64,000 bases of DNA from Dictyostelium discoideum. Its lineage: Eukaryota. A model generated the notes under the pieces. The model was not told the DNA's origin. It saw nothing but the letters and a program-made list of their open reading frames with translations, and ran no database searches. Made by a program: the position numbers and the translations under genes. The DNA is taken from contig CM000153.2 in assembly GCA_000004695.1 (NCBI GenBank), forward strand, positions 5,344,001 to 5,408,000. The letters run 5' to 3'. Positions 11,378-28,643 of the stretch are shown piece after piece; position 1 is the first letter of the stretch, and the number at the start of each line of letters is the position of its first letter.

Positions 11378-13627
<2,250 letters not shown>

Positions 13628-13663
13628 TTTATTATTATTTAAATTTTAAAAAAATTTAAATTG

Positions 13664-13705
<42 letters not shown>

Positions 13706-14265
13706 TATTTAAATATTTTTTATTTATATAATTTACAAATGTAAAGATAGAATGAAGATAATTATTTTTATTTACAAATTTTACAATAATTTTAATTTAT
13801 AAAAAAAAAAAAAACAATAAAAAAAAATAAAAAAAAAGATATGTAATGTTGTTTGTGAAAAAAAAAAAGTTTAAAATAGATTTTTTGATTGAAAAAAAAA
13901 AAAAATTAATAAAAAATTTAATTAAATCTTTTGATATTGTAAATTTAACTTTAATTGGTGGAGTTTTTTTATTTTTATTTTTTTTTTTTTTTTTTATTTT
14001 TTTGAAATTTTATGAAAAAAAAAAAATAAAAAAAATAAAAAAAATAAAAAAAAATAAAGATATATATAATTGGTTGAAATTATGTGTTGAATTGTTTTTA
14101 TTTACAGATATATTGTAATTTTACAGTAATTAATTTTTTTTTTTTTTTTTTTTTTAATGATGAGAAAAAAGGAATTTAATTTTTTTATTTAATTTTTTTA
14201 TTTAATTTTATTTATTTTTTTATTTTTTTTTTTTTTTTTTGTTATTTTATTTTTAAAATTATTTT

Positions 14266-14301
<36 letters not shown>

Positions 14302-15560
14302 CAAAAATTTGATCACCCCCAATTTTTTTTTTTACCTTTATTATCAAAAAAAATATTGTTACTCATTCAATGTGGTTTCAAATATAAACACATTGTTTTG
14401 TGGTGGTGTGGGGTTATTAATATAATTTTTTAAAAAAAAAAAAAAATAATAAAAAAAAATAAAAATATTGGCCTCAACCAAATCACAAATAGAATTGAGT
14501 GTTTGTTTTCAAATTATAGTGTGAACCTTTTATGAAAATAAATTAAAATTGTTTTTATCACCACTAAATCCTTGAATCAAAAAAAAAAAGATTAAGTTAT
14601 TTTTAGCATATCAAAAAAAAAAAAAAAAAAAAAAAATTATAAAAATAAATAAATTAAAAAAAATAAAAATAATAAAAAAAGATATAAAAAGAAAAAAAAA
14701 AAAATTAAAATTATTAATATGGAATTACCATTTTTGTTGCAAAGCTTTATTTTGAAAATATTTTAAAAAAAAAAAAAAAAAAAATTATATGATGATATTT
14801 TTAGTAAGATTAATTGAGATTTTTTTTTTTTTAAAAAATATCTATATTTTTTTTTTAAAAGATCCAATGAATTGAAAATTTTAAATATTTTTTTTATTAA
14901 AAAAAAAAGATATTAAAGTGGATTTTTAAATTATCAAATAACTAAATAGGGTAAAATCTTTAAAAAATAATCTCAATTCAGTGTTTTTTTTTTTTTTTTT
15001 TTGCCATTTAAATTAAAATAACAATTGACTAGATTTTTATACCAATTATTTAATTTTAAATCTATCCAATTGATTTTTTTTTTAATTAAGGCTAAAAATT
15101 TAAAATTATCCATTTTTTTTTTTTTTTTTTTTTCCTTTTTAAATATAGGCTTTAAAAAATTGTTAAAATAATAAATAAAAAAAATAAAAAAAATAAAAAT
15201 AAAAAAAATAAAAAAAATAAAAAATTTGATATACAATTAAATAACAAAAAACTTGTTTTTTTGAACTTAATATCTATTTTTATATAAAAAAATAAATAAA
15301 TAATTATTAAAAAGAAAATGTGGTTTTGAAAAAAAAAAAAAAATAAAAAAAAAAAATAGTCCAAATCAGGTGGTTTGGATAATTTTATTTTTTTTATTTT
15401 TTTTTTATTTTTTTTTTATTTTTTTAATAAAAAAATAAGAAAATGATTTTTTTTTATTTTTTTTTATTTTTTATTTTTTTTTTATACATAAAATTTTTTA
15501 TATTTTTTTTCTCAACAAATAATAAAAAACAAATAAAAAAAAAAATTAAAAATTAAAGAA

Positions 15561-16251
15561 ATGATATTATTATATAATAATCATTTTGATGAAAACGAGA
15601 TAGAAAAAGGAATGAAAGAAATCAATAATAATAATAATATTAATATTAATAATAATATAAATAATAATAATAAATCACAAAATATAAAAAATGAAATGTA
15701 TACAATTAAAAAAAAAGAAATTATTGATATTAAATTAATAAATGATGATAATAATAACAATAATAATAATAATAGTAATTGTAGTTGTAGTAAAGAATCA
15801 TCAACTTCTTCAACATCAATTATATCACTGTCATCATTTTTTTCAAGTATAAATAATATTTATGATGAAGATGAAATTGAAAGAGCAATTGGTTTAAAAA
15901 AAAGTAATAAAATTTATAATAATACAATTATTTATAGATCAACAAGTCAACATAAAAATTTAATACCATTATATGAACATTATTATAAAGTTTCAAAATC
16001 AACTAAATTAATTTTTACAACAGATCAATTCGACCCAAAAGTTGATATAGATAATGATAATTTAATTGTATTTGCCAAAGGATTAGAACCTTTAATTCAA
16101 GAGAATTTTGAATTTTATTGTTCAGAATTAATTCATCTCTTTGAAATTTTAAAAAAACATAATGCAAATAATATGAAAATTTTATTATTATCATTAAATT
16201 CACAATATAATTCATTTTTAAATTCATCATTAATTGGTTTAATTAAATATT

Positions 16252-16316
<65 letters not shown>

Positions 16317-16712
16317 CAATTCATTTCAATTGATTTCGATAATAATTCATATTATAATAATAATATTTTCAATAATATTGAATTAATTATGACGAATTTT
16401 ATTAATTATAATAATATAAATAATAATAATATAAATAATAATAATAATATAATTCAAATTATAAATAATAAAATATTTAAAGAATATAATCAAATGATTG
16501 ATGAAAATTTTAATAATAAAAATAAAATCGATAAGGAAGATGATAAATTTGGTAAGACAGTATTAATTACGGGTCAAGAAGGTTTATCATTACAATTTTT
16601 AAAATGGATTATAAATAAAAGAAATACCAATATAAAAGATATAATTGTTGTATCAAAATCATCAATTGATTGGGAAATTGAAAAATTAATTGAATATTGC
16701 ACCACCAATAAT

Positions 16713-16786
<74 letters not shown>

Positions 16787-16928
16787 CGATAATCAAATTA
16801 CAATTCATTTCAAAAATTTAGATATTTCAAAAATGTATTCAATTAAAAATTTATTAAATCAAATTTATAAAGATAATAATATATCACCCGTTGAATCTAT
16901 ATTTCATTTCTCTAATAATAACAATATA

Positions 16929-17012
<84 letters not shown>

Positions 17013-17255
17013 TTTAAGAAATTTCATGATTGTAGTTCAAATGGTTCATTAAATCTACATCAAATATCAATTGAAATGAAATGGAATTTAAAAACATTTT
17101 TATTAAATGGTATGAATATTAGCAACAACAATAATAATAATCTTGGTGAAATTAGTTCAAATGAAGTTTTAGAATCATTAAATAATTACAGAAAATCAAT
17201 TGGATTATCATCAAGTTTAATAAAATGGTCACCATCAAATATTTATGATAGTAAC

Positions 17256-17289
<34 letters not shown>

Positions 17290-17351
17290 TTGAAATTATT
17301 GAATTTTTAATTAATAATAAAGAAAATTATTCAAATATTAGTATTTTGTAA
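15561..17351 (+). CDS. Stand-alone ORF (596 aa) resembling the ketoreductase (psi-KR + KR) region of type I polyketide synthases. The NADPH-binding motif is degenerate, and there are several poly-Asn inserts.
   Basis: TVLITGQEGLSLQFLKWIINKR…IIVVSKSS aligns with the PKS KR pattern TYLITGGLGGLG…KWL…VLLSRSG. Downstream, IFHFS, SSNGSLNLHQISIEM (compare GAWNLHQLT) and SSSLIKWSP (compare SINWGPW) follow in the expected order. No KS/AT/DH-like coding sequence lies in the ~1.4 kb AT-rich upstream region. Confidence 0.45.
16705..16792 (+). repeat. (CAA)n / (AAC)n microsatellite, in-frame poly-Asn/Gln codons
   Basis: About 29 tandem aac/caa units. Confidence 0.9.
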
Positions 17352-21300: not shown

Positions 21301-22750
21301 TATTATTAACTTTTACAGAAATATTTCAATAAACACAAATAAAACTCAATCAAATGGTATATAGAAGTAATTTATTTAATTTTTTATTTTTTATTTTTTT
21401 TTTTCTCTTTTAAATTGTTCTATGTAACAAAAGCATCACTTTATCACTTTAAATATTTAAGTAAAATCCATTAAAAATTCTTTTCCTTTTTTTTCTTTTT
21501 AATTTTTTTTTTTTTTTTTTTTTTTTATTAATTATAAATTTTTTAAAATAATAATCTTTTTATAATGTTTTAAAAGTAGATTAAAATAATAATAGTTTCA
21601 AATGATTCAAGTAATTCGACCAATGTAAATAATAATTGAAATAATTCTTGAAATAATAGTAATAAAGGTCCAAATTTTTATTGATTATTTTATTAATTAT
21701 TGTGATTTTGAAATTGAATATCCAAAACCAATAGTTTATACTATTGGAGGGAATTTAACAGTCTAATAACTTTTATATTATATTTCAAATATTACAATAG
21801 AGGTTAATAATCAATTACAAAGTAATAATATTTAATTTATAAATTTAACAACAATAACATGTAATTTACCATCAATTAATGAAACAAGTCAATCATCAAT
21901 AATAAACATCTACTGCCAAAAAACACTATAACCACAATTTTTAGAAAAAAGTTATTATTAAAAATAGCATTTGAAAGTAAATCATGGAGTGGATATATTT
22001 TTCAATATTCTAAAGATGAAATTCTGTATAATAAAAGTTATAATTCAAGTGATAAATCTTTTAATTAATAGCACAAATAATAATAATAATAAACAAAACA
22101 AGGAAAATGGAATTAATATATAAGTACAAAAGCACAATTGTGTTAATTTGTACCTTTGTGCCTTCAAGTATAGCTATAATAGTATATTTGATAAAGATTT
22201 TCTTAATAAGAAAAAGAACAAATAAATTATTACATAAATCTTAAAAAAAGAAATTATTTATCACAAGAACAAAAAAGAAATAGGTCGTGCAAAAGTAAAA
22301 GAAGTTGACGAAAAAGATCCAAGAAACAAAATTTGAAAATAAACGTTTAATGCTTCAATATGCTACCAGGAATGCAAAATATAGAAGCACTGTAGCATGG
22401 ATGGAAAAAGAGTTTGAAAAACAAGAGTTTGAAAAATAAGAGTTTGAAAAACAACAAAATCAATCAAAAAATGATAATATTGAATGTTCAAGTAGTGGCC
22501 AAAGCCAACAACAAGATTTTGAAAATAAAAATGAAACAACGTCTCAATTACCACCATCACAACTACCACCACAGCTACCCTCATCACCACCACCATCACA
22601 ACTACCACTACCACAGCTACCCTCATCACCACCATCACCACAGCCACCATCATCATCACCACCACCTACCTTCATCACCACCATCACCACCATCACCACC
22701 ATCACCACCATCACCACCATCACCACCATCATCATTATCATCACCATAAA
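20280..22750. other. Non-AT-homopolymer, complex non-coding block without an intact ORF. It contains a degenerate repeat-coded ORF with an internal stop. Probably a transposon or rearrangement remnant.
   Basis: Base composition and complexity differ from the flanking intergenic DNA. At 22390-22445 a triplicated 15-mer (gagtttgaaaaacaa / gagtttgaaaaaTaa / gagtttgaaaaacaa) has one unit mutated to a stop. At 22540-22740 the sequence is Pro/Ser/Thr-rich ccaccatca-type repeats. No tRNA or rRNA signatures. Confidence 0.35.
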
Positions 22751-23029
22751 ATAATTCTGAAATTAAAAATAAAATAAAATAAAATAAAAAATAAATTAAA
22801 TAATCCCATTTATTATTTTAATATATATATTTGTTTTATTTTGATTGGTTTGAAATTCTACTTGTTGTATTGTACCATATGACGTTCTACAAATTTGAAT
22901 GTAAATCTATTTTGAAATTCAATTGATTTAAAAGTAACATCTGTATATTGATATAAATTAATTTTAACTTATAAAATTCTACCTGTACCTATGGTTCTAT
23001 TTTGAGCGCTACTGATCTATGGTATGTAA

Positions 23030-23345
23030 ATCCATTTGAAGAATTTCCTTGGCTCTGGTACACCGAGTGGAACGAATTCTAGATCCATTTGATCATAATG
23101 AGTATCAAGAGCTTGCATATATTTGGAGAAAGAAATTAACCAATTGATGGATGGGAAATGTTTACGTTGTGCTAATTTTTTATCTAAACCCCAGAATACT
23201 TGGACGATACCTAAAGTGGCAGCAGTGACTGGATCAGCAAAATCTATATTATAAAAATTAATAAAATTAGTAAAATATTCAAATTTTTTCAAAGTTGCCA
23301 TCTTAAAAATTTTGGCATACCTCCACCAGAGGTTTAACTGCACCG
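23030..23345 (-). pseudogene. Fragment copy of the V-ATPase A subunit gene (vatA), duplicated ~3.5 kb upstream of the intact gene
   Basis: Positions 23037-23263 are about 97% identical to 26731-26937 of vatA. The differences are a 'tacaccgagtgg' versus 'tacggagtgg' indel and a tctAgatcc/tctGgatcc substitution. The fragment encodes [54 protein letters not shown]. Further vatA-like sequence (ctgcaccgacaa…) follows after an ~80-nt AT-rich insertion. No start codon, and both ends are truncated. Confidence 0.7.
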
Positions 23346-24301
23346 ACAACTTTAACGTGAAACAAGTTATAAATTAATTAATTAATATTAAAAAATATTA
23401 ATTGTAAATGCAACTTGCATTTACAAATAAATAATTTTTTTTTTTTTCTTTTTTTTTTTTTTCCTTTTTATTCTTTTTGTAAGTTTAATTATAAAAAATA
23501 AAAAAATAGAAATACCTTAAAATTTTATTTTTATTTTATTTTATTTTTTTATTTTATTTTATTTATTAATTTTTTTTTAAAACTAAAATATGGAAAAAGA
23601 AAAAAAAAATAATTTCAATATAAAAATAAACCCTCAATTGAATTTTAAAAAAATAAACCCTCAATTAAATCTTAATAAAATGGTAAAGGGTTATTTTTTT
23701 TTTTAAGGTGTTTTTGACTATTCAAGAATTTTACCACATTATTCAAAAAAAGAAATTAAGTTATGACATAGTTATTTAAATTGATATATCATTCATTCAA
23801 ATGAGAAGAAAAGATGGTAATACCTAAAATCAAGGAAAAGAATCGAGATTGGATATCTAACAGGTAATAAACATATTCAAACATATCGATTACTTGCAAA
23901 AATTTTTTAAAAAAAAAAAAAAAAAAAGATGATGATTAAATAAATAATAATGGTTAATCATAATAAGACATTCCTATTTTTTTAATTTTTAATTTTTTAT
24001 TTTTTTTTTATTTATTTTTTTTTGTTTAAAGATTAAAATTTTTTAAATAAGGAAGTTACACTTTTTATACTAAAAATAATAAATCCAAAAATTAATCTAA
24101 AATTCTTTTTTTTATTTTTTTTTTTTTTTTCTAAAATTTTTTTCACCAAATTTCTTGGAAGTGTTTTCAAAAATCTGTATTTGGAATTTTTTTTTTTTTT
24201 TTTTATTTTTTTTTTTTTTTTTATTTTTTTTATTTTTTTTTTTAATTTAATATATTTTTTTTTATTATTTTTATTTTTTTTTTAGTTTTAATATGATTAT
24301 T

Positions 24302-25403: not shown

Positions 25404-26323
25404 AGTTGAAAAAGTGGTTGGTTAAGCAAAATCTTTAAAACTTTACAATCATTATTTATTCTAACTAATAATCTAAAATAAAAAAATAAAAAAAACACTT
25501 TTAAATAGTACATTCCTTCTTTTTTATTTAATATTTATTCAAAGATTAGTAATGACAGACGAATTAACCGAGTCGAAAATATTTAAATTGAATCTATTAA
25601 TTTTTTTTAATAACTATTATATTAATTTTTTTTTTTTTTTTTTCTAATTTATTATTTTTTTTTTTAATCAATATATATCTAAATTATTATTAAAATTATT
25701 TATATATTTATTTTTTTTTTTTTCTTTATTTATATTTACCTTATTTACTTTACTATTTATATACTCTTATATTTATATATTTTATTTATTTCTTTATTAT
25801 ATTAAAATAATTTTTTTTTTAGGACAGTCATTCGTAGTGATAAACACTAACAAGACGGGATATTCACTAATTTTTATTATGTTTATCAAACAAGAATATG
25901 AATTGAATTTTTTTTTTTTTAATTAAATAACCTACCAAAGAAAATGCTAACTAAAAAGTATGGATAAATTAAATATATATATTCTTTATTGATATTTCGA
26001 AGATATCAAACACTATATAAATTATATTTAAAAGCTAAAATGCAAAATCACGTTTACAAACAATTCGTTGTAAATTAAAAAGAGGTATCAATCAAGCTGC
26101 TCCTCTTAATAAATGAGTACACCACCATAATCTCCTCTATCATGCTAAATAATAAAAATAAAAATAATAATAAAAAATACAGCAAACACAACCTGAGAGG
26201 AATCTTTAAAAAAAAAAAAAAAAAATGATGCAAAGTATAATTATTGTTTTGGTTTAGATTACTTTTTTTATTTTTTTATTTACTATTATATATTTATATT
26301 ATTTTTTATTAATATCATTTATT

Positions 26324-28643
26324 TTAAACTAAATCACTAAAGTTTCTGAAAGCAGTAATGATATCTTCATTGAGAGTTGAGAAATGAGCAGTTAAAGTTT
26401 GTTCACCGTCAGTTGGATCTTGGAATTTCATTGAAGTAATTCTGTGAATGATTTCTTTTAATTCATTTTTAATTTGATTCCAAGTAACTTTATTATCAGC
26501 GGTACTTGATTCAACAGCTTTTTGTGCTAAATTGTAGAAAGTCATCATATTCTTTAACATCCAAACGGTCTTGAAGAATGGACAACATTTATCGTATGGA
26601 GAGAAACCATTTTGTTGAAGGAAATCATCACGAATAATACGAGCGACTTCAATGGTAATCTTTTCAGATTCACCTAAAGAATCTTGACCGACCAATTGGA
26701 CGATTTCAGAGAGATCTTCTTCCATTTGAAGAATTTCCTTGGCTCTGGTACGGAGTGGAACGAATTCTGGATCCATTTGATCATAATGAGTATCAAGAGC
26801 TTGCATATATTTGGAGAAAGAAATTAACCAATTGATGGATGGGAAATGTTTACGTTGTGCTAATTTTTTATCTAAACCCCAGAATACTTGGACGATACCT
26901 AAAGTGGCAGCAGTGACTGGATCAGCAAAATCTCCACCTGGGGGAGAGACTGCACCGACAATTGTAACTGAACCAATACGAGTTGGATGACCAATACATG
27001 ATACACGACCAGCTCTTTCATAGAAAGATGCAAGACGAGCACCCAAGTAAGCTGGATAACCAGAATCTGCTGGCATTTCAGCTAAACGACCAGAAATTTC
27101 ACGAAGAGCTTCAGCCCAACGAGAGGTAGAATCAGCCATCATAGCAACATTTAAACCCATATCACGGAAATATTCTGCCAATGTAATACCAGTGTAGATA
27201 GAAGCTTCACGAGCAGCTACTGGCATATTTGAAGTGTTGGCAACTAAACAAGTACGTTGCATAATTGGTTCTTCTTTATCACCGACTTTAGTATGGAGTT
27301 CTGGGAATTCCATAAGTACTTCAGCCATTTCATTACCACGTTCACCACAACCTACGTAAACAATTGCATCAGAGTTGGAGAATTTAGAGAGAGATTGAGA
27401 AATTACAGTCTTACCACAACCAAAAGCACCTGGAATAGCACATGTACCACCTTGTACGCATGGGAAAAGTGAATCAAGTACACGTTGACCAGTTAATAAT
27501 GGATAATTACATGGAAGTTTTTCAATGACTGGACGTGCACTACGTACTGGCCAATTGTGAACCATAGTTAATTGTTTACGTTTACCATCGAATTCAATGG
27601 TTAAAAGTGCATGATCCAAAGTGTATTCACCAGCTGGTGCAATCTCTACGATGGTACCCATTTCCTTTGGTGGAACCATAATCTTATGGATGATTAAATT
27701 ATTTTCAACAACTTGACCAAAAATATCACCACCACTAACATTGTCACCAACTTTTAATTTGGTATCTGGTTGATATGGCCATTTAATAGTTCTATTTAAT
27801 GATGGAGTATTAATACCTCTTGGAATATAAATACCTTTTGTAATCTCTGCAATTGCATTTAATGGACGTTGAATACCATCAAAAATATTATTCATAATAC
27901 CTGGACCTAATTCAACTGTTAATGGTTTATGAGTTCTTAATACTGGATCACCAACAGTTAAACCAGCTTATTAAATAAAAAATTAAAAAATATATATATT
28001 AATATTATTTTATTATTAATATAAATATATATATTATATATTTTATTTTTTTTAATTGTACTTACAAGTTTCTTCGTAAACTTGAATTGTGGCAGTATCT
28101 TCTTCTAATCTAATAATTTCACCAACTAATTGATTGTGACCTACACGAACCAACTCGTACATAGCAGCACCAGCTAATTGATTAGCAATTACGACTGGAC
28201 CTGATACTGATAATACAAAACCTTGTGAATTATCAGCTTCAGTTGAAGCGAATGATGGTAAACCTGAATTTTTTGACTAAATATTATTATTTTTTGGAAA
28301 AAAAAATTATGATTAATATTAAATTATTATTATTATTATTATTAATCTAAACAAACAAAATAAATAATTATTTGGTGTGTGTGTATATATATATTATTGT
28401 GAGTGAATGAATGATCGTAAATTGTGTGAAGTATGTTTTTATTTTTAATTTATGATTTAGCATGCAATGAAAATATAATCAATCATTTGGTTTAAAAAAA
28501 AATTTTAATCATTTGATCTTTATAAATATATTGATATATCATCATTTAATAAAAAAAATTATATTATTTTATTGTTATTTTTAATTTTTCCTTTAAAAGG
28601 AAATTAAATAAAAATATATTTTTTTTTGGTTGGTTCTTACCAT
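26324..28643 (-). CDS. vatA: V-type proton ATPase catalytic subunit A. Predicted exons 28643-28641 (ATG only), 28276-28066 and 27966-26324; 618 codons.
   Basis: The 523-aa ORF has a Walker A motif (GAFGCGKT) and shares its whole length with V-ATPase A ([15 protein letters not shown]…). The upstream exon encodes [70 protein letters not shown], with a GTAAGT donor at 28065 and an …AAG acceptor at 27968-27967 (phase 1, giving …[12 protein letters not shown]). Exon 2 opens directly after TTTAG at 28278-28277 with an in-frame TAG before it. The nearest ATG immediately followed by GTAAGA is at 28643-28641, and the total then equals 1857 nt. That first exon is an inference. Confidence 0.85.

Follow-up and report, generated by a model that had tools for sequence, protein, structure and literature searches.

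The open reading frame (ORF) at 15561-17351 is likely a real protein-coding gene, encoding a detached and selectively maintained ketoreductase (KR) of dictyostelid iterative type I polyketide synthase (PKS) descent that has become catalytically dead, a pseudoenzyme rather than a decaying relic. The KR homology of the product, the boundaries of its domains and the isolation of the ORF within the 64-kb window, by which we mean the whole stretch of Dictyostelium discoideum DNA that was analysed, were established directly. A sequence-only reading of this DNA had proposed a 596-codon frame on the forward strand, and we recovered it exactly there, from ATG to TAA, in the following surroundings:

11378-13627, - strand: divergently oriented upstream gene, 749 aa, adjoining the 1.9-kb intergenic region
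13628..15560, no strand assigned: AT-rich intergenic region of 1.9 kb, presumed promoter region, common to the ORF and the divergent upstream gene; collinear with the orthologous loci in a second assembly labelled D. discoideum (GCA_054859355.1, L001) and in D. citrinum (L002)
15561..17351, + strand: complete single-exon coding sequence of the detached KR-like protein, ATG to TAA, 596 aa plus TAA; the orthologues are also called single-exon
18787-17886 plus 17769-17475, - strand: convergent downstream gene, 398 aa, with one intron of 116 bp

Two proteins encoded in the window are identical to D. discoideum AX4 entries (PheRS-alpha XP_637352.1 and DDB_G0287195), which makes the DNA that of AX4 or a near-identical strain, from chromosome 5; the ORF is located there between the TFIIF-beta gene and vatA/phesA. 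At the local base composition, a frame of 596 codons would stay open by chance with a probability of ~2e-31. The G+C content of third codon positions (GC3 8.7%) is well below that of first and second positions (GC1 23%, GC2 21%), the pattern expected of coding sequence, in a window whose G+C ranges from 10 to 36%. Asn makes up 32% of the predicted product, which carries five long poly-Asn tracts. Exact look-ups in a collection of 15 billion proteins found neither the product nor two versions with alternative starts, and no model labelled AX4 turned up; yet the word-indexed search is not exhaustive, having missed the orthologues of the downstream neighbour that are present in L001 and L002, and the lack of an AX4 model is thus not proof of absence. 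The reference annotation may omit the ORF or flag it as a pseudogene. The spliced product of the downstream neighbour had no exact match in the protein collection either.

The ORF stands apart from any other PKS sequence of the window. When 35 PKS proteins were compared with the whole 64 kb by tblastn, no other PKS domain appeared and 46 of 46 HSPs fell inside 15909-17243. KS, AT, DH, MT and ACP were not found beside the KR part anywhere in the window, in keeping with the earlier statement that no KS, AT, DH or ACP coding sequence lies nearby, and the flanking genes are unrelated to PKS and offer no biosynthetic context. The upstream 749-aa gene has no Pfam match, and the downstream gene shows a weak resemblance to RNase III (PF14622) at 26 bits, short of the gathering score of 35. 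The stop codon of the latter lies 124 bp from that of the ORF, so the 3' UTRs of the two convergent genes must abut or overlap.

Farther along, at 23017-23514 on the reverse strand, part of the gene for the V-ATPase A subunit is present a second time, including an ORF at 23017-23349, ~3 kb from the full vatA (26241-27968). Both stretches align with the one vatA gene of D. citrinum L002, and the partial copy is probably a duplicated fragment or a pseudogene. Between the neighbourhood of the ORF and vatA/PheRS (~19-26 kb), D. citrinum has several kb less sequence than the window: the distance from the ORF to PheRS, downstream of it, is 12.6 kb in the window and 9.1 kb in L002. Among the additional sequence are the vatA fragment and a low-complexity ORF rich in His, Pro, and Ser (22414-22749).

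Both subdomains of a PKS ketoreductase, the structural (KRs) and the catalytic (KRc), are contained in the ORF, without an enoylreductase (ER) between them. The parts of the protein, all encoded on the forward strand, are these:

15561..15890, + strand: N-terminal extension, residues 1-110; of low complexity and without detectable homology, the fastest-evolving part (dN/dS 0.67), disordered in the structure model
15891..16460, + strand: KRs (structural, psi-KR), residues ~111-300; delimited by tblastn, HMM and alignment; pLDDT 85-93
16254..16316, + strand: poly-Asn tract 1, residues 232-252, within a loop of KRs; not equally long in all genomes
16461..16550, + strand: KRs-KRc junction, residues 301-330; site of the ER in ER-containing PKSs, with none in the ORF
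16551..17348, + strand: KRc (catalytic-type Rossmann), residues 331-596; delimited by Pfam KR, the Pks16 match, alignment and fold searches; ends at the last KR strand
16707..16787, + strand: poly-Asn tract 2, residues 383-409; includes a perfect (AAC)25 and is absent from both orthologues
16929..17012, + strand: poly-Asn tract 3, residues 457-484, in place of the beta4-alpha4 loop of active KRs
17253..17288, + strand: poly-Asn tract 5, residues 565-576, in place of the ~30-residue lid found after the WG motif of PKS KRs

The resemblance to PKS psi-KR/KR landmarks noticed in the sequence-only reading proved statistically real. Pfam KR (PF08659) matches the ORF at 28.9 bits, above its gathering score of 22.6; among the orthologues, P0001 reaches 38.2 bits and P0002 stays just under the threshold at 22.2. 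The best match among solved structures is Dictyostelium Pks16 (PDB 9nju), with E=9.7e-12 for the single sequence and 1.1e-32 for a profile of the three orthologues, the region matched to KRc being Pks16 residues 2185-2417. In two word-indexed searches with the ORF, poly-Asn words swamped the results, and nothing but the two orthologues came back; an exhaustive HMMER search of 1.84 billion representatives was needed to reach the PKSs, and it recovered 38 further PKS-type proteins at E<=1e-3 (best 2.5e-38). All eight relatives that were scanned are PKS-type, that is, KS-AT-DH-MT-KR-ACP with or without ER, or fragments thereof, and those with a traced source come from Dictyostelium species or are EukProt gene models. 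The nearest, P0024 and P0021 (D. cf. discoideum KAM9993076.1), share 36-43% identity with the ORF and, unlike it, carry an ER.

Some of these relatives call for separate comment. As candidates for distant orthologues, P0045-P0049 and P0053 were set aside, for they keep the catalytic residues where aligned and look like fragments of PKS models. By profile score the closest PKS relatives are the EukProt models P0016, P0018, P0019, P0020, P0025, P0026, and P0027 (1,060-1,470 aa), in which the first ~130 KS residues are followed by DH-MT-KRs-(partial ER)-KRc, without KS core or AT. These seven models are either systematically mis-spliced or represent a truncated PKS-like protein family in another dictyostelid.

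The match to KRs is significant by itself (tblastn with P0019 741-857, E=1.5e-10; HMM domain E=2.6e-13, with the KRs of many PKSs matched), and the alignment of the ORF with PKSs is collinear from the first KRs strand through the last KRc strand; an apparent alignment of residues 47-78 to PKS columns in alignment A3 was discarded as a low-complexity artefact. KRs and KRc are separated by 190-440 residues in ER-containing PKSs and contiguous in the ER-less P0027, P0033, P0037, and P0054, as they are in the ORF, whose junction, falling between KIFKE and YNQMIDENF, aligns with the ER insertion point. Given that the nearest relatives, P0024 and P0021, carry an ER, this domain was probably lost in the lineage of the ORF. 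At the other end, the terminus of the ORF aligns with the last KR helix and strand (IEIIEFLINNKENYSNISIL vs. GTMDLVIQNNHLPNLIFAKV). An AF2 model gave a pTM of 0.67 and cores with pLDDT of 85-96, and its top Foldseek matches are Pks16 and DEBS KR1; a KR-like fold is thereby recovered, in a model guided by the PKS KR alignment, such that the fold match is not independent of sequence homology. The usable model drew on full-length relatives, and one built from a three-sequence alignment reached a pLDDT of 36.6 and was left unused.

The in-frame repeats of the ORF consist of (AAT)n and one perfect (AAC)25, earlier described as a (CAA)n run; in frame, it encodes Asn, not Gln. This microsatellite (16713-16787) supplies 25 of the 27 Asn of tract 2, at a place where the orthologues read TTNNKLNDN and NKSNDN. 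Its absence from both of them points to a recent, lineage-specific in-frame expansion.

The half of KRc that would bind the dinucleotide is well preserved, including its glycine-rich loop:

16569..16589, + strand: nucleotide-binding loop TGQEGLS, residues 337-343; T337, G338, Q339, and G341 kept

GQEGLS had been taken for a degenerate NADPH motif, which is a misreading. TGQxG, with x usually S or T, is the norm of dictyostelid PKSs, being found in 26 of 26 relatives aligned at the loop column and in Pks16; GGTG occurs there only in the outgroups P0050 and P0051. The sole oddity of the ORF is its acidic x, E340 (D in D. citrinum), where S or T is usual, and such an acidic side chain in the glycine-rich loop might weaken the binding of NADPH. 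Residue conservation was judged from the 27 PKS rows in alignment A3. By this measure, T337, G338, Q339, and G341 are identical to all PKS relatives aligned at those columns (25-27/27), and 15 of the 17 positions conserved at >=80% in PKSs are retained throughout this half. No invariant or nearly invariant residue of this half is missing, those kept being T337, G338, Q339, G341, W349, S365, S367, E372, D421, and H449.

The active site has fared otherwise, with changes at each of the following positions:

17034..17036, + strand: S492 at the position of the catalytic Lys; S, S, and N (N in D. citrinum) in the three aligned orthologues
17109..17114, + strand: G517-M518 at the invariant Ser-Ser, the second being the catalytic Ser; G followed by M, I, or A across the three orthologues
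17148..17162, + strand: E530-I-S-S-N534 in place of YxxxN; Tyr replaced by Glu in 3/3 orthologues, Asn534 kept

The Lys, the Ser-Ser pair and the Tyr at these sites are invariant in PKSs (27/27) and changed in all three orthologues, so that of the catalytic Lys-Ser-Tyr set, together with its Asn, the ORF keeps only Asn534. The poly-Asn that replaces the beta4-alpha4 loop and the lid differs in length between genomes. The catalytic Tyr is essential in SDR/KR enzymology, and by these established rules the loss of Lys, Ser, and Tyr, with two active-site loops replaced, would make ketone reduction impossible; the product is thus predicted to be unable to reduce a beta-keto group. The sequence-only reading had also arrived at a pseudo-enzyme, and that conclusion holds, but the reason it gave, the NADPH motif, was wrong; what carries the conclusion is the lost catalytic residues and the poly-Asn loops.

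Orthologues of the ORF, both intact, single-exon and syntenic, occur in two other genomes: that of the assembly GCA_054859355.1 encodes 540 aa and that of D. citrinum 597 aa, with aligned identities of 96% and 82%, respectively. Against D. citrinum, over 395 codons free of gaps and homopolymers, the in-frame dN/dS is 0.27 at dS 0.29 (binomial p=6e-10 vs. neutrality), and shifting the same alignment to frames +1 and +2 raises the ratio to 1.55 and 0.79. For the flanking genes it is 0.16 and 0.54. By region, dN/dS rises from 0.08 in KRs (residues 111-231) through 0.29 in KRc to the value of the N-terminal extension. These comparisons demonstrate frame-specific purifying selection at the sequence level, as gauged over the short time (dS 0.29) that separates orthologues from two very close lineages. 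Neither hallmark of a pseudogene is seen: the frame is undisrupted in all three genomes, the loci in GCA_054859355.1 and D. citrinum included, and dN/dS is far from the neutral value of ~1. The ORF is therefore not in neutral decay, as had been argued from a frame that stays open through its triplet repeats, although the repeats alone are weak evidence, because triplet-repeat slippage preserves frame. Furthermore, the losses centre on the active site and spare the residues of the fold and the cofactor motif, a pattern that marks a pseudoenzyme rather than random decay.

The comparison with GCA_054859355.1 brought up one further observation. Synonymous divergence between 15561-17351 of the window and 10001-11623 of L001 is ~0.07, a value that looks large for two isolates of one species and hints at a cryptic lineage or a problem with the label of that assembly.

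Other readings of the ORF have to be weighed against a maintained pseudoenzyme. The earlier choice had been between a detached pseudo-enzyme and a PKS remnant; the detached, PKS-derived KR stands, now as a selectively maintained one, and the remnant is disfavoured. A functionless remainder of a synthase otherwise deleted, its frame still open by chance or because it arose recently, would account for the loss of catalytic residues and two loops, for the tolerance of large, polymorphic poly-Asn expansions, for an AX4 protein model that was not found (in a search that is not exhaustive) and for an ORF known in sibling lineages only. We nonetheless regard it as improbable, since the chance of such an open frame (~2e-31) is minute, the ORF is intact in three genomes spanning dS 0.29, and dN/dS is 0.27 in the coding frame only (p=6e-10), within the range of the flanking genes and as low as 0.08 in KRs; random decay, in addition, would not give a pattern in which the active site is lost while fold and cofactor residues are kept.

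Also very hard to sustain is an active, trans-acting ketoreductase that employs non-canonical catalytic residues. Lys, Ser, and Tyr are all replaced, the Tyr being essential in SDR enzymology, the Ser site even varies among M, I, and A in the orthologues, and both the lid and the beta4-alpha4 loop have given way to poly-Asn of variable length. The retained KR fold and nucleotide-binding motif would favour activity, as would the existence of free-standing type I KRs in dinoflagellates, but these single-domain proteins keep YxxxN (PMC5725682). To the proposal that the ORF is one exon of a larger PKS gene with its other exons nearby we attach next to no credence. Dictyostelium PKS genes are numerous and some of their database models fragmentary, which would accommodate such a gene; yet the 35 PKSs used in tblastn found nothing beyond 15909-17243 in the 64 kb, and the flanks are taken by the divergent 749-aa gene and by the convergent RNase III-like gene, with stops 124 bp apart. 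The ATG, moreover, follows an AT-rich intergenic region, the TAA falls at the KR boundary, and the orthologues are called single-exon.

A catalytically dead, free-standing KR may be set beside several known systems. With the KR of Dictyostelium iterative type I PKSs (e.g. Pks16, 9nju) it shares both subdomains, the TGQxG loop, the W at the DH-contact position, and the C-terminal boundary (PMC12828403). That KR is embedded in KS-AT-DH-MT-KRs-ER-KRc-ACP, whereas the ORF is free-standing, has no ER insert, lacks the catalytic Lys, Ser, and Tyr, shows poly-Asn in the lid and the beta4-alpha4 loop, and bears an extra low-complexity N-terminus of 110 residues. The C-type KRs of modular PKSs are reduction-incompetent and keep the KR fold for a structural or epimerase role; they remain in the module, typically with a damaged NADPH site and often with the catalytic Tyr kept (PMC11228615). 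The ORF, judged from its residues, would likewise retain the KR fold without reduction, but its pattern is reversed, with the cofactor motif kept and the Tyr lost, and it is a separate gene; it has neither an NADPH-site defect with Tyr kept nor residence in a PKS module.

Dinoflagellate single-domain type I KR proteins are free-standing, keep YxxxN and form their own protist clade (PMC5725682). Like them the ORF is eukaryotic, free-standing and KR only, but it reads E-I-S-S-N and is apparently dead, and its best traceable matches, in a similarity ranking rather than a tree, are Dictyostelium PKSs or EukProt models, not that protist clade. NmrA and HSCARG/NMRAL1 are SDR-fold, NAD(P)-binding regulators without catalytic Tyr that act through protein-protein interaction. 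[quoted passage not shown] All 40 DdPKSs are modelled in the Pks16 paper (PMC12828403), which makes no reference to a detached KR, and we found no mention of one from Dictyostelium in the published literature.

The proposed pseudoenzyme retains the whole two-subdomain KR scaffold (KRs plus KRc), with the rest of the synthase, ER insert included, gone, and we infer that the product most likely acts by binding, not catalysis. Tentatively, it may be a non-catalytic module that still binds NADP(H) via the intact beta-alpha-beta half, or that docks a partner through its KR surfaces. A candidate docking surface would include W371, the equivalent of Pks16 W2272, which lies at the DH/KR interface (PMC12828403); the equivalent of Pks16 N2279 is E378. 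The data in hand do not separate these from a purely structural or some other role. More speculative, and rather unlikely, is a role in trans, as a factor acting on the PKS/FAS machinery of Dictyostelium, or one as a sensor of the NADP(H) state. Were the first of these true, the preserved KR surfaces (ACP-docking or DH-contact), possibly with bound NADP(H), could compete with or assemble onto at least one of the 40 megasynthases and so tune polyketide output, and the ORF would encode the first PKS-derived pseudoenzyme regulator.

Dictyostelium has about 40 giant PKSs, most of them without known product or regulation, and the small product of the ORF would offer a tractable handle on their biology. 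If the reference annotation really lacks the ORF, its recognition would be a gain for annotation as well. Its loss of the active site alongside a preserved cofactor half would make it a clean natural example of pseudoenzyme formation. Overall, a maintained, free-standing dead KR would show that domains of megasynthases can be exapted as independent, non-enzymatic proteins.
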